Of a DNA stretch of 64,000 nucleotides, positions 1 to 6,848 are shown piece after piece. The translations under genes were made by a program, and so were the position numbers. Origin of the DNA: an uncultured delta proteobacterium (GTDB lineage Bacteria; Myxococcota; UBA727; VGSZ01). Within the stretch, counting starts at the first letter, position 1. The number at the start of each line of letters is the position of its first letter. Location: assembly GCA_963775425.1 (NCBI GenBank), contig CAVZJB010000012.1:320001-384000 (forward strand). Direction: 5' to 3'. Under the pieces are notes generated by a model. That model worked only from the letters and a program-made list of their open reading frames with translations. It did not search any database and was not told the origin of the DNA.

Positions 1-440
1 GCCGGCGTCGCGCCTCGGCGAGGAAACGCCGAGGGGAAGTTGTTGGTGAGGATGAGGTACGTCTTGTAGCCCTTGGACAGGAGCAGCCAGTACAGCGGCG
101 TGAGGGGGCTTCGCAGCTTGTGGCGCACGGAGAACGCGAGGAAGCCGCGGTGGAGCGCCTTGGTGCCCCAGCAGTCGGGGTGGATGACGGTGTCTCCGGA
201 GAACAGGATGTCCACCGGCTTTCCCGAGAGCGTCTCGCGCGCGACGCGGATGGTGGAGAAGCCCTGCACCGCGCGGTGCTCGTCGACGAGCAAGATGACG
301 TGCTGCTTTTCGGCGAGGTCGGCGGCGAAGCGCGCGGGATCGACGTTGTCGTAGCAGAGCTGCATGAGCGCGAGCATGCGCGCGCGCGTGTGGTCGTCGA
401 GCGCGGCGCGGGCCACGATCTTATGGCGCAGCCGGCTCAC
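1..440 (-). CDS. Conserved hypothetical protein, probable GNAT-like fold (3' end runs off the window)
   Basis: Not in the ORF track because it lacks a stop. Manual translation from GTG at 440: MSRLRHKIVARAALDDHTRARMLALMQLCY...VQGFSTI...ILFSGDTVIHPDCWG...LYWLLLSKGYKTYLIL. The GTG overlaps the TGA of the upstream gene (GTGA). Confidence 0.75.
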   Translation of the reverse strand, partial: MSRLRHKIVARAALDDHTRARMLALMQLCYDNVDPARFAADLAEKQHVILLVDEHRAVQGFSTIRVARETLSGKPVDILFSGDTVIHPDCWGTKALHRGFLAFSVRHKLRSPLTPLYWLLLSKGYKTYLILTNNFPSAFPRRGATP

Positions 441-1069
441 GTGAGCACCTCGGCGGCGTAGCGCGCCACGAACGCGCCCACCGCGCCCGTGACAGCGGCG
501 TTGCACAGCGCGGTGGCGCGGTTGATGGCGGCGAAGCGCGGGTCGCCCTCGGGGGCGAACCACACACCGTGCGCGCCGGTGGTGCGGCCGCCGACGGCGC
601 CGAAGAAGCGCCAGGCGTGGTGGATCTCGACGGCGAGCGAGCCGACGACGGCGGCGCACAGCCCGAGCGCCCAGCGGTCGATGCCCGGCGACGCCACGGC
701 CTCGGCGACATCGTCGGCACGCCACAGGAGCGCGCCGCCGACGAGGGCGATGGAGAGCGCGCAGTGGGCGATGCCGTACGGCGGGCGCCAGCTTCGCGTC
801 ACATAGAGCATGAACATCTCGACGGCGCCGCGGAGCCACATGAAAGCGGCGAACGCGCCGAGCGCGGTCCGGAAGCAGGGCGCGACGACGTCGTCGAGGG
901 CGAGGGCGGGGCAGACGAGGAACCAGAACCACACGGCGAAGCCGAGCCAGTACGCCTTGGGCGACGACATCGCGCCGCCCATGGCTCCGCGACCCTGGCG
1001 TCTGCGGAACATGGCCGCGAGCGCGGCGACGGCGACCGCGCCGCCGACGATGACGACGAGGGACGTCAT
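437..1069 (-). CDS. Hypothetical multi-pass membrane protein
   Basis: 210 aa with several hydrophobic helices (YWLGFAVWFWFLVCPAL, FAAFMWLRGAVEMFMLY, WRPPYGIAH); stop overlaps the next start. Confidence 0.75.
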   Translation of the reverse strand: MTSLVVIVGGAVAVAALAAMFRRRQGRGAMGGAMSSPKAYWLGFAVWFWFLVCPALALDDVVAPCFRTALGAFAAFMWLRGAVEMFMLYVTRSWRPPYGIAHCALSIALVGGALLWRADDVAEAVASPGIDRWALGLCAAVVGSLAVEIHHAWRFFGAVGGRTTGAHGVWFAPEGDPRFAAINRATALCNAAVTGAVGAFVARYAAEVLT

Positions 1070-1164
1070 CGCGCTCGACCCCCGTCAGCGCGCTCGACCC
1101 TCGTCATCGCGCGCAGCCTCGCCCTCCGCCGGAGGTCGCGCGCGCTCATTGGACAACCTCTACG

Positions 1165-1372
1165 CCGCGGTGACGGGTTGAGCGATCTTCCCGGCGCCGT
1201 CTCCCGGGCTTCGTCGGGGAGGGCCGCGCTCGCTTGCCGGTGAACGGCCCCTGTGAGACCCGCCCCCTCGACGAAGCCGGGAGCCTTGAAGCGGCTACAG
1301 GACGTTGCGCCCGACGATGTTTGCTGACGACGACGGAGCGCCTGTCAATGAGCAACCGATCAAGGCTCCCAG
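1165..1372 (+). ncRNA. IS110 bridge RNA (target-binding loop and donor-binding loop); ends approximate
   Basis: Stem GGCTTCGTCG 1207-1216/CGACGAAGCC 1269-1278 encloses guides CGCGCTC (1225-1231) and CCTGTGAG (1250-1257), which match the flanks. Stem GGGAGCCTTGA 1279-1289/TCAAGGCTCCC 1360-1370 encloses ACAGGACGT (1297-1305) and CAATGAG (1346-1352), which match the element ends. Confidence 0.88.
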
Positions 1373-1406
1373 CCCGGGGGACGGTACCGCAACAAGGAGG
1401 TCCGTC

Positions 1407-2612
1407 GTGTCGTACTTTGCAGGTTTGGATTGGGCGGCGAACGAACACGCCGTCTGCGTCATCGACGACAAGGGCAGCGTCGTGCTCCGCCTCGTCGTCA
1501 AGCACACCGAGGAGGGTCTCACCGGCGCTGTGGCGAAGCTCCGTAGGTTCACTGAGGAAGCGCCGCTGCGCATCGCCATCGAGCGGCCGACGGGGCTCGT
1601 CGTCGACACGCTGGTCGATGCGGGATTCCACGTCGTGCCGATTCACCCGAACGTCGTGAAAGCGACGCGTCCGCGCTACTCGAGCGTTGGCGCCAAGAGC
1701 GACCCCGGCGACAGCTACCTGCTGGCAGACTTGCTGCGCACCGATGGGCATCGCTTCAAGACGCTCACGCCGCTCGGAGACGAGACGAAGGCGCTGCGTG
1801 CCCTCGTTCGCGCACGCGGCGACCTCGTTGCCGAGCGGGTTGCACTGGCGAACCAGCTGCGCGCGCTCGTTGAGAGCTTCTGGGCCGGCGCCGCGTGCAT
1901 CTTCCGCGACATCGACTCGCCCATCGCGCTGGCGTTCCTCGGGAGGTACCCGACACCGCAGCACGCCGAGCGCGTCGGCGAGAAGCGGCTCGAAGCGTTC
2001 CTGGCGCGCAACCACTACTCCGGTCGCAGGGACGTCGCCGAGCTCCTGGGCCGCTTGCGAGGTGCGCCCAGCGGCAAGTGCGGCGAGATGGAGGCCGAGG
2101 CGAAGGGGGAAGCCGTGCAGCACCTCGTCGCGGTCCTCGACATCGTCGTCGCACGTCTCAAGAAGCTCAACGCCGCCGTCGAACACGCCGTCGAGGCGCA
2201 CCCCGACGGGCACATCGTGATGTCGTTTCCGCGCAGCGGACGCATCAACGCCGCGCAGATTCTCAGCGAGCTCGGCGACGAGCGCGCGCGCTTCGACAGC
2301 CACGAGCACCTCGAGGCCGAGGCTGGCGTGTGCCCCGTAACGTTCGCGTCCGGCAAGCACGTCGGCGTCGCGTTCCGGTGGGCGTGCAACAAGCACCTGC
2401 GCTCCGCCGTGACCCTCTGGGCCGACAACTCGCGACACAGCTCGCCATGGGCCGCCGCCCTCTACGACGCTGCCCGCGCTCGCGGCCACGACCACCCGCA
2501 TGCGACCCGCATCCTCGCTCGTGCGTGGCTCCGGGTGCTGTACGCGTGCTGGAAAGCCCGCGTCCCGTACGACCCGGCCCTTCACGGCCGCGCCGCCGCG
2601 CTCGCCGCCTGA
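1407..2612 (+). CDS. IS110-family transposase/recombinase
   Basis: RBS AAGGAGG at 1394-1400 before GTG 1407. RuvC-like DEDD motifs GLDWA, AIERP, KSDPGD; C-terminal AGVCPVTFASGK with the conserved Ser, and RILARAWLRVLYACW. Confidence 0.95.
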   Translation: MSYFAGLDWAANEHAVCVIDDKGSVVLRLVVKHTEEGLTGAVAKLRRFTEEAPLRIAIERPTGLVVDTLVDAGFHVVPIHPNVVKATRPRYSSVGAKSDPGDSYLLADLLRTDGHRFKTLTPLGDETKALRALVRARGDLVAERVALANQLRALVESFWAGAACIFRDIDSPIALAFLGRYPTPQHAERVGEKRLEAFLARNHYSGRRDVAELLGRLRGAPSGKCGEMEAEAKGEAVQHLVAVLDIVVARLKKLNAAVEHAVEAHPDGHIVMSFPRSGRINAAQILSELGDERARFDSHEHLEAEAGVCPVTFASGKHVGVAFRWACNKHLRSAVTLWADNSRHSSPWAAALYDAARARGHDHPHATRILARAWLRVLYACWKARVPYDPALHGRAAALAA

Positions 2613-2635
2613 GATGGCGTGACGCAGCGCGGTGG

Positions 2636-2641
2636 TTGACA
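2636..2641 (+). promoter_or_regulatory. Outward-facing -35 box of the IS110 circle-junction promoter
   Basis: Perfect TTGACA. On circularisation through CTCA it lies 17 nt from CAACCT (1154-1159), upstream of the bridge RNA. Confidence 0.7.
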
Positions 2642-2650
2642 CAGGACGTC

Positions 2651-5596
<2,946 letters not shown>

Positions 5597-5705
5597 GCGC
5601 CGTCGAGCCTACCCGCTGGCGCCCCGCGAGGGCAGCGCCCGGCCGGCGCCCGGCCCTCGCAGCCGACGGTCTTGGTCGCGGCGCGCCGCTGTAGAGTCCG
5701 GCTGC

Positions 5706-6848
5706 ATGCGCTTCGACGAAACCCTCGCCGCCGTGCGCCGGGCGACGCCGGCGGACAACCAGCTCCTCGTCGATCTCATGGCCGAGGTGCCGATGGAGGG
5801 CTCCCTCGTCTTGTCCACGCGCCGCGATCCGGACTTCTTCGCCCTGTACGCGATGCAGCGCGGCAGCGCCGACGCCTTCTGCTACGACGACGGCGCCTTC
5901 GCCGGCATGGGCGCCATCCTCGTGCGCGACGGCTTCCTCGACGGGAGGCCGGCCCCGGTGGGCTACCTCGGCGATCTGCGCACCCGCGGCATGGGCCGCG
6001 CCCGCCGCGCCTTCCCCGGCGTGTTCGCCCACTTCTTCACGGACACCGTCGCGCGCACCGGCTGCGAGCACTTCCTCACCGGGGTGCTGGCGTCGAACGC
6101 GGTGGCGCTGCAGTCGCTGGTGCGCCGCAAGAGGCGGCGCGCGGAGCAGCCGTACTACCACCTGCTCAAGCGCTACCAGATGGCCTCGGTGCAGCTCGTC
6201 CTGCCCCCGCGCCGGCGCCTGCGCCCGCGCGCGGATGAGGGCGGGGGCGTGCGCGTCGACGTCGCCGGCGCGGCGGACGTCGGGGCGCTCGCGTCGTTCC
6301 TCGCGGAAGATCACCGCACGCGGCCGTTCGGCTACCGCTTCGACGCCGGCGAGCTCGAGCACCGCCTCGCAGCCTGGCCGGGCTTCTCCCTCGACGACAC
6401 CTTCGTCGCGCGCGACGACGCCGGCCGCGTCGTCGGCTGCTGCACCGCGTGGGACGCCGCGCCCGTGAAGCGCTACCGCGTGATGCGCTACGCCGGCGAC
6501 ATGCGGCTGATTCGCGCGGGGCTCGCCGTGGCCTCCAGGGTCGTCGGCTGCCCCGCGCTCCCCGCGCCCGGCGGCGACTTCCGCTACCTGTACCTGACGA
6601 ACCTCAGCGTCCTCGACGACAACCCCGCGGTGATGCGCGCGCTCCTGCGCAAGGTCTACGTCCACGCTTGGGACAAGCGCGTCCACTTCTTCTCCTTCCC
6701 GCTGTACGAGGACGACCCCTACGCCGCCGCGCTCGACGGCTTCGTCGTGCGCAAGCTGCCGTTTCACCTCTACGCGGTCACGGCGGCGTCGCGCGCCCGC
6801 ACCGACTGGCCTGCCGGCCGCCCCGGCTTCGAGATGGCGCTCGCGTAG
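5706..6848 (+). CDS. GNAT-like acyltransferase
   Basis: ATG 5706; VRRATPADN...RRDPDFFALY...VGYLGDLR pattern typical of GNAT-fold proteins; divergent from the fusion gene. Confidence 0.65.
   Translation: MRFDETLAAVRRATPADNQLLVDLMAEVPMEGSLVLSTRRDPDFFALYAMQRGSADAFCYDDGAFAGMGAILVRDGFLDGRPAPVGYLGDLRTRGMGRARRAFPGVFAHFFTDTVARTGCEHFLTGVLASNAVALQSLVRRKRRRAEQPYYHLLKRYQMASVQLVLPPRRRLRPRADEGGGVRVDVAGAADVGALASFLAEDHRTRPFGYRFDAGELEHRLAAWPGFSLDDTFVARDDAGRVVGCCTAWDAAPVKRYRVMRYAGDMRLIRAGLAVASRVVGCPALPAPGGDFRYLYLTNLSVLDDNPAVMRALLRKVYVHAWDKRVHFFSFPLYEDDPYAAALDGFVVRKLPFHLYAVTAASRARTDWPAGRPGFEMALA

Follow-up and report, generated by a model that had tools for sequence, protein, structure and literature searches.

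A clade of IS110-family insertion sequences at stop/start overlaps of operon genes, and an antisense frame that may relay translation through them

The stretch of DNA analysed here (the window, 64,000 nucleotides of contig CAVZJB010000012.1 from an uncultured delta proteobacterium) harbours, at 1149..2653 on the plus strand, an insertion sequence (IS) of the IS110 family. It is inserted between two minus-strand genes, at a point where the stop codon of the first overlaps a start codon, and it is crossed from end to end by an open antisense frame. The element, its relatives and the possibility that this frame relays translation through the insertion are described below. The limits of the element were set by alignment of its copies in this genome (8.26 Mb, G+C 71.9%), of which four are full and one is truncated, and its length is 1,505 bp counting one copy of the core. 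In the comparison of the genomic copies, identity spans GCTCA/TTGGAC through GACGTCTCA/CAG (strokes mark the ends of the element), and the flanks have in common only (Y)GCTCA at the left and CAG at the right. In all four full copies, the 4-nt core CTCA (TGAG on the minus strand) is present at both junctions, placed by the junction alignment at 1145..1148 and 2650..2653 in the window and thus 1,505 bp apart, from which the minus strand of the empty target, which is antisense to the transposase, can be reconstructed as CTGTGAGC. No terminal inverted repeat is among the 25 longest inverted pairs, none of which joins both termini, and a DNA search of 38 genomes of the same order gave no match to the element beyond this genome. 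The genome contains 91 unoccupied CTGTGAGC sites, 23 of which (~25%) end a gene on the same strand, as against all four sites occupied by full copies. The fifth copy (G000:C18:86451-87382, loci L005/L035) retains only the left end and first 932 bp and is broken off within the transposase gene; local repeats of a CCCGGGCAGGTCACGCCCCGGCACAGGG-like unit come next, and its left flank is an intergenic repeat with no clear gene.

The transposase, or bridge recombinase, is encoded at 1407..2612 on the plus strand (401 aa) from a GTG start that follows AGGAGG. Its product matches the Pfam families DEDD_Tnp_IS110 (PF01548, E = 1.5e-32) and Transposase_20 (PF02371, E = 2.3e-14), so that an N-terminal DEDD/RuvC-like domain is combined with a C-terminal Tnp domain; it scores 183 bits against the NCBIfam model NF033542, ‘IS110 family RNA-guided transposase’ (cut-off 140), and has a distant match to IS621 in the PDB. 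The element belongs to a widespread clade of IS110-family, bridge-RNA-guided insertion sequences. The hexamer TTGACA (2636..2641, plus strand), which resembles a -35 box, lies 12 nt from the right end and, in the alignment of right ends, is conserved across the clade, being perfect in the window element and invariant in most relatives. On the IS110 model set out in passages of PMC11208160, it is presumed to be one half of a promoter that would be formed on the excised circle. A consensus promoter scan of positions 400-3000 on both strands gave no complete promoter in the integrated state, although high-G+C promoters may not fit that consensus, and no terminator-like site was detected on the minus strand within the element. 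The same genome also carries a second, unrelated IS110-family transposase (G000:C13:290974-294805; L172, L173, L201), split in two matches ~3 kb apart, which may be interrupted.

The gene upstream of the element on the minus strand (2651..5596, from the list of open reading frames, ORFs) encodes a protein of 981 aa with FG-GAP repeats and, by Pfam, an UnbV_ASPIC domain at residues 888-973; its in-frame G+C at codon positions 1, 2 and 3 is 0.81, 0.55 and 0.95. It ends in CTG TGA, and this TGA (2653-2651), contained in the right-junction copy of the core, is kept after the insertion. A host GTG (2654-2652), completed by base 2654, overlaps the stop codon and opens an antisense ORF of 502 codons (1146..2654, minus strand) that is codon-aligned with the transposase gene, crosses the whole element and closes at TGA 1148-1146. 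It occupies the same minus-strand frame as ORF 1146..2870, whose length of 574 aa arises because upstream of the GTG the frame continues open into the neighbouring gene for 72 further codons. Of the remaining antisense frames of the element, one contains 9 stops and the other 12. The left-end terminus (1149..1160, minus strand) consists of GAGG (1160-1157), 7 nt and an ATG (1149-1147) overlapping the TGA that closes the ORF; the A of this ATG is supplied by the element and the TG is part of the duplicated core. It may be read as a Shine-Dalgarno-like motif with a replacement start codon for the downstream ORF, which here has 27 aa (1066..1149, minus strand) and is opened by that ATG. The TGA of this short ORF overlaps in turn the ATG of the next host gene (437..1069, minus strand), whose product is a 210-aa membrane protein without a Pfam match. 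The first-pass annotation, made from the letters of this stretch, had placed the insertion at a GTGA stop/start overlap of the minus strand, followed the antisense ORF from 2654 to 1146 across the element, and seen the GAGG 7 nt before the ATG at 1149, the restored 27-aa ORF and the overlap of its TGA (1066-1068) with the next ATG; all of these coordinates hold on re-reading.

The 27-aa ORF lies on a 19-nt tandem repeat (1064-1112, 2.6 copies, 90% matches) that covers it and repeats the ATGACG with which the 210-aa gene begins. Loss of two 19-nt units (38 nt) would bring the junction GTG in frame with that gene, so that the two genes may originally have met in a direct GTGA overlap of the kind present in relatives. 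At orthologous loci free of the IS, the UnbV_ASPIC gene overlaps the membrane-protein gene by GTGA (L175) or ATGA (L176; locus numbers carry the prefix L throughout), and at a third such locus (L177) the two genes are a few bases apart.

The 258-nt left end of the element, on the plus strand, contains a bridge-RNA-like structured RNA (1204..1375) recognized from its fold and covariation, with two long stem-loops that carry internal loops. Its fold has a z-score of -5.99, and 0 of 200 shuffled sequences were equally stable; RNAalifold on 15 left ends of the clade gave 30 consensus pairs, with compensatory changes in 17. An Rfam scan of window positions 1-6000, at E values up to 1, matched no family. 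Four guides can be placed within this RNA: LTG at 1227-1234; RTG at 1247-1259, reading CCCCTGTGAGAC; LDG at 1297-1306, which copies the right end (ACAGGACGT); and RDG at 1343-1352, reading TGTCAATGAG, the complement of the left end. Among the guide-like segments, CGCTCGCT resembles the left target, CCCCTGTGAGAC matches the right target read on the antisense strand, and ACAGGACGTT is the right-end copy. Across the clade, guides agree better with the targets of their own element than with those of other elements (5.73 vs 4.14 of 8 positions, and 4.07 vs 2.87 of 7), and the observed total was reached in 0 of 10,000 permutations. The guide RNA itself encodes RTGAG and so sets the purine that precedes TGA, with a match in 14 of 15 elements on the target side and in 15 of 15 on the donor side. 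The RNA-guided targeting proposed in the first reading of the sequence is thus supported by the covariation of guides and targets and by the conserved two-stem-loop RNA. A 21-nt inverted repeat, 81% complementary, was observed between the target-guide segment (1244-1264) and the transposase coding region (1511-1531; GGAGGGTCTCAC...), and may reflect chance or pairing of the guide RNA with the mRNA.

Relatives of the element were collected in two ways. When species genomes were scanned with the protein as guide, 10 loci with 45-67% identity came to light, in Methylomirabilota/Rokubacteria, Roseomonas (Alphaproteobacteria), Gemmatimonadales (Gemmatimonadota) and Actinomycetota, the last including Salinispora and Haloechinothrix. 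A scan of metagenomes with the right-end pattern matched at least 121 stretches, from which 80 loci were taken for analysis; among the matches listed, a related transposase was present in 18 and absent from 63 oriented matches, and 10 of the 18 are intact with both ends. The carriers of the clade, this genome included, thus belong to at least five phyla. The ends are conserved, ...TCA/YTGGnnnACC at the left and GGTTGACACAGnnnnnnTCA/ at the right. The first-pass annotation had proposed that homologous elements be examined for an antisense frame open through the left end and for targets tied to start codons, and both expectations are borne out. Of the right junctions, 30 end in TCA, and on the antisense strand every one of these has ATGA or GTGA (18 from metagenomes, 8 from species genomes and 4 from this genome), the TCA, though not the next base, being part of the metagenome search pattern. 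Among the 17 elements for which both ends could be defined, 16 have an antisense frame open from the target ATG or GTG to a stop at the left-end junction. They are the window element, L037, L038, L039 (L040 being the same element at a second site), L043, L045 and all 10 intact metagenome copies.

Where the sequence flanking these elements was sufficient, and with coding ORFs judged by length and by G+C periodicity over codon positions, a long coding ORF ends in frame at the junction TGA at 13 of 15 sites (L125 is weak and L116 fails), and the left-end RTG opens a long coding ORF at 11 of 15, the ORF having only 18-41 codons in three copies of this genome and in L078. At every classified site, transposase and host genes lie on opposite strands. 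By Pfam, the insertion separates VirB8 from CagX/VirB9 (L037), an ABC_tran protein with a LivG-type C-terminus from another ABC_tran protein (livG/livF-like, L039), the small subunit of exonuclease VII from a polyprenyl synthetase (xseB/ispA, L040), two ABC_tran+oligo_HPY proteins (oppD/oppF-like, L043) and two BPD_transp_2 proteins (livH/livM-like, L045), whereas the second copy on contig C12 of this genome lies between an unnamed gene and an ECF sigma factor. The five pairs are recognizable operon partners with both members intact, and gene pairs of these kinds are classical co-transcribed pairs. On the antisense strand, the left end of related elements carries a purine-rich run (RRGG), 7 nt and RTGA; examples of the run are GAGG, GGAAGGG, GGAGGG, CAGGG and AAGAGGG, with GATGG in L046 and L069 and a weak form (ACGG) in L037. 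Runs that look like Shine-Dalgarno sequences are also found in the host flank upstream of the junction RTG, and both junctions read RTGA at all conforming sites.

The antisense frame varies in length and keeps its register. It has 497 codons in L037, 530 in L038, 502 in L039/L040, 506 in L043, 401 in L045 and 480-546 in the metagenome copies, and in L043, L046 and L069 it stops at a TAG directly before GTGA. Copies cut by a contig edge are still open at the contig end (L094, 503 codons; L099, 466; L074, 336). The conforming transposases compared (15, with L045 left out) form 13 groups at <80% amino-acid identity, and TTA, CTA and TCA, the sense codons read as stops in the antisense frame, occur 0 times in 6,175 codons of the transposase frames of 15 elements, where ~8.5 would be expected at this host's rate. 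The lengths of all 16 conforming elements (1,202-1,637 bp) are 2 mod 3. When segment lengths are measured from alignment columns, the distance from the left end to the DW codons of the transposase takes 11 distinct values between 235 and 436 nt, all 1 mod 3, and non-triplet insertions and deletions within the left end are compensated at a short distance, as with 66 and 43 (L043 type), 118 and 38 (L078), and 62, 38 and 43 (L047). The donor-loop hairpin is 18, 30, 33 or 39 nt long, eight lengths, all 2 mod 3, occur between the donor guide and the DW codons, and the non-coding right end occurs in five length classes (14, 20, 29, 32 and 41), again all 2 mod 3. If phase were free, agreement would be expected by chance at about (1/3)^10 for the 11 classes and about (1/3)^4 for the five, on the assumption that the classes are independent. 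On the sense strand, the transposase frame is interrupted by stops in the left end of 15 of 15 elements, and no sense frame is free of stops across all 15, so the constraint on phase points to the antisense frame. This agreement in phase is the strongest evidence for conservation of the antisense frame.

Several copies fall outside this set for other reasons. L042 was left out as too short; L044, L049, L056 and L087 carry frameshifts or deletions and have broken frames, and L054 and L066 are remnants. The element of L045, in Haloechinothrix halophila, is a shortened derivative of ~1,202 bp with weak transposase similarity (45%, E = 7e-42), and its antisense frame of 401 codons is fully open, from ATGA to ATGA, between two intact BPD_transp_2 permease genes.

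The anatomy of the element, the match between guides and targets, the conserved open frame with its phase and the intact operon neighbours can be read in the sequences themselves, and the following route for ribosomes would account for them together. The target guides are set to the 4-nt RTGA(G) stop/start overlap of translationally coupled genes, and the element always sits with its transposase gene running against the host operon. Both neighbouring genes come unaltered through recombination at the TGAG core, the upstream gene keeping its TGA, while the host start codon and its Shine-Dalgarno sequence now open the antisense frame that crosses the whole element. This frame ends in the purine-rich motif, 7 nt and RTGA, a replacement start for the downstream gene that overlaps the relay stop. 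Ribosomes ending the upstream gene could then reinitiate on the overlapping RTG and translate the 1.2-1.6 kb insert, and such translation would keep the operon mRNA covered, so that Rho-dependent polarity and inhibitory structure in the RNA would be avoided and the complement of the guide RNA held unfolded. The same ribosomes would stop at the left-end TGA and reinitiate on the overlapping RTG of the downstream gene, and the insertion would thereby be near neutral for the operon. In short, we infer that the relay frame is translated, that reinitiation takes place at both junctions, that polarity is relieved and that a fitness benefit follows. A translation relay that keeps operon insertions non-polar, as the first-pass annotation had suggested, appears probable, if some way from secure. 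The broader claim calls for slightly more reserve, and is favoured by a small measure only: that a clade spread over at least five phyla is ‘translationally transparent’ in operons, with its guide on RTGA, its whole sequence (the guide-RNA gene included) a phase-locked antisense frame, its left end rebuilding a ribosome-binding site (RBS) and a start codon, ribosomes relayed across it, and essential operons such as xseB-ispA tolerating the insertion.

A conserved open frame in a fixed phase would fit any translated ORF, and the antisense frame could instead encode a protein needed by the element, that is, a ‘host-expression-dependent’ (hed) type of gene, in which case stop/start targeting would serve the expression of that gene and not the host operon. 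There is a precedent, cited in the first-pass annotation and real as described in passages of PMC8141618: in IS900 of Mycobacterium avium subsp. paratuberculosis, also of the IS110 family, the hed ORF lies on the complementary strand, spans the whole element and has no RBS or start codon of its own. Such a protein would, however, owe its C-terminal 70-140 codons to the left end, the first part of which (26 to 227 nt) is unalignable, and the shortened 1,202-bp element of L045 is still open and in phase. The 502-aa antisense product matches nothing in Pfam or NCBIfam. A hed-type function would also leave unexplained the Shine-Dalgarno-like motif of the left end and the RTG, overlapping the stop, that restores the start of the neighbouring gene. 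On balance, this explanation is rather unlikely.

A plainer possibility is safe-harbour targeting alone, the guide being tuned to RTGA because insertions between genes survive, in which case the open frame, its phase and the left-end motif would follow incidentally from a high G+C content, the alignment of codons, the core used in recombination and a promoter element. Much of what tells against a relay belongs here. Host genes of this genome use TTA, CTA and TCA at a rate of 0.00137 per codon, and as a result a codon-aligned antisense frame is open in 1,394 of 2,192 host-gene windows of 401 codons (64%); in the 258-nt left end, ~1.8 stops would be expected from base composition. The caution voiced with the original proposal, that openness is expected at high GC, was therefore right, and since antisense-open windows are so common in host genes, this genome alone proves little and the case rests on the comparison of relatives. 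The antisense frame over the transposase is also open in two of four IS110 elements from outside the clade, which have no TTA, CTA or TCA codons, the other two having 4 and 5; this control, drawn from the carriers' own genomes and limited to four distinct elements, is thin. A control set of other IS110 transposases, drawn from 151 genomes within the phylum, had been dropped on account of a much lower third-position G+C (0.36-0.87) and an unreliable choice of ORFs. In the variable left end, internal stops number 0 in 485 codons of the relay frame as against 2 in 484 and 13 in 473 codons of the other antisense frames, counts that discriminate weakly, for which reason phase was relied on instead. 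The purine-rich motif, which on the plus strand (ACCYTC) follows TTGACA at ~17-18 nt in the joined ends, might just as well serve as a -10-like promoter element or as a binding site for a protein; recombination itself might demand a purine before TGA; and sites between genes might be enriched simply because harmless insertions survive, a selection on survivors made plausible by the fact that only 23 of the 91 unoccupied CTGTGAGC sites end a gene.

Individual loci also fit the relay poorly. In three of the four full copies of this genome, the junction GTG opens an ORF of only 18-27 codons, and coupling to the next gene would there be indirect or absent: at the window site, ribosomes would have to hop a second time, by way of the 27-aa ORF, and at two other copies, where the next gene begins ~100-130 nt further on (with its own GGAGG in the case of the C4 copy), solely the relief of polarity would apply. 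L036 (Methylomirabilota), with an intact transposase, is the sole out-of-phase element of the 17; it is 1,579 bp long (1 mod 3), and its frame stops at a TAA ~35 nt before the left-end GTG, although its GTGA junction is still clean and has a coding ORF on either side. L041, whose putative ends have no common core and whose frames are all broken, does not conform. Nevertheless, safe-harbour targeting does not account for 11 left-end and five right-end length classes that keep one phase through compensated insertions and deletions, or for the lack of antisense stops in 6,175 codons from 13 or more lineages. Nor does it account for insertions inside operons such as xseB/ispA, an untranslated insert of 1.5 kb in an operon being expected to be polar. 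As a sufficient explanation it seems very improbable. A separate observation was made on a transposase from outside the clade (L218, G154:C7:62856-67031; 135 of 408 residues identical to that of the window): its gene has no antisense stops, its codon-aligned antisense frame runs on past the gene for 435 nt on the upstream side and 156 nt on the downstream side, and it may be an independent hed-like case.

A third alternative, that antisense translation is real and regulates the element, with a host-driven, ribosome-covered antisense RNA silencing transposase and guide RNA and the sparing of the downstream gene a side effect, agrees with the antisense orientation of the transposase at every classified site and with the presumed -35 hexamer at the right end, which implies that integration parts the two halves of the circle-junction promoter (IS110 model, passages of PMC11208160), but is very improbable, to about the same degree as safe-harbour targeting, since antisense transcription alone would suffice and neither an open, phase-locked frame nor a restored start would be needed.

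The relay proposed here has relatives among known systems. Like IS900, the window element belongs to the IS110 family and has an ORF over its whole length on the strand opposite the transposase, the RBS and start of which would be taken from the host target. IS900 reportedly inserts at translation initiation signals in one orientation, to go by the title of the 1997 report by Doran et al., and its target is said to lie between the RBS and the start codon. Compared with that target, insertion here falls within the TGAG of a stop/start overlap, after the host start codon; the element also contributes a new RTG that overlaps the stop of the frame and is preceded by a purine-rich motif, and the idea published for IS900 is expression of hed rather than the maintenance of operon expression. 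The termination-reinitiation coupling of genes that overlap by ATGA or GTGA offers another parallel, as both insertion junctions have the 4-nt overlap with purine runs upstream, and the IS-free orthologues in two relatives have native overlaps of this kind. Unlike ordinary coupled genes, however, a mobile element would here copy the device at both of its ends, and an inserted frame of 400-546 codons would bridge two host genes. Inteins, self-splicing introns and in-frame Rickettsia palindromic elements neutralise their own disruption by splicing or by translation within the host protein. The present elements resemble them in that the disruptive effect on host expression would be removed, and differ in that the host proteins are unaltered and a separate frame would carry the ribosomes.

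With IS621 and the other IS110 bridge-RNA (seekRNA) systems, the element shares a DEDD recombinase, a non-coding left end with a two-loop guide RNA, a short core at both junctions and a -35-like hexamer at the right end. It differs from IS621 in its junction repeat, which is CTCA in the window and TCA in the clade instead of a CT dinucleotide, and in a left end that would also be coding sequence on the opposite strand. The targets of IS621 and its relatives are described, in passages of PMC11208160, as REP and other intergenic repeats. In a term search, the main text of that bridge-RNA paper (PMC11208160) contained none of the terms ‘antisense’, ‘stop codon’, ‘start codon’ and ‘IS900’; ‘IS900’ and ‘stop codon’ are likewise absent from the seekRNA paper (PMC11187229), and in that paper and the preprint the mentions of stop or start codons concern only the transposase or an engineered cargo gene. 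No account of RTGA targeting, of a start codon restored by the element or of a relay in IS110 elements was found in open-access full text, supplementary files excluded. What is known, then, is an IS110-family element with a hed-type antisense ORF, and targeting of stop/start overlaps combined with restoration of the start codon was not found in the open-access literature.

If true, translation through the element would explain how IS110 elements persist in transporter, type IV secretion and isoprenoid operons, where insertions are normally polar, and would give a functional reading to the long-puzzling hed-type antisense ORFs of the family. It would also mean that a guide-RNA gene can double as coding sequence of the opposite strand. 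For the design of bridge-recombinase cargo that spares downstream genes, the rules suggested by these elements would be to target RTGA, to keep an in-phase open frame, and to end in a Shine-Dalgarno motif, 7 nt and RTGA. The clade would then represent mobile elements that neutralise their own polarity by translation, and would offer a natural model for RNA-programmable insertions that are not polar in the operons receiving them.

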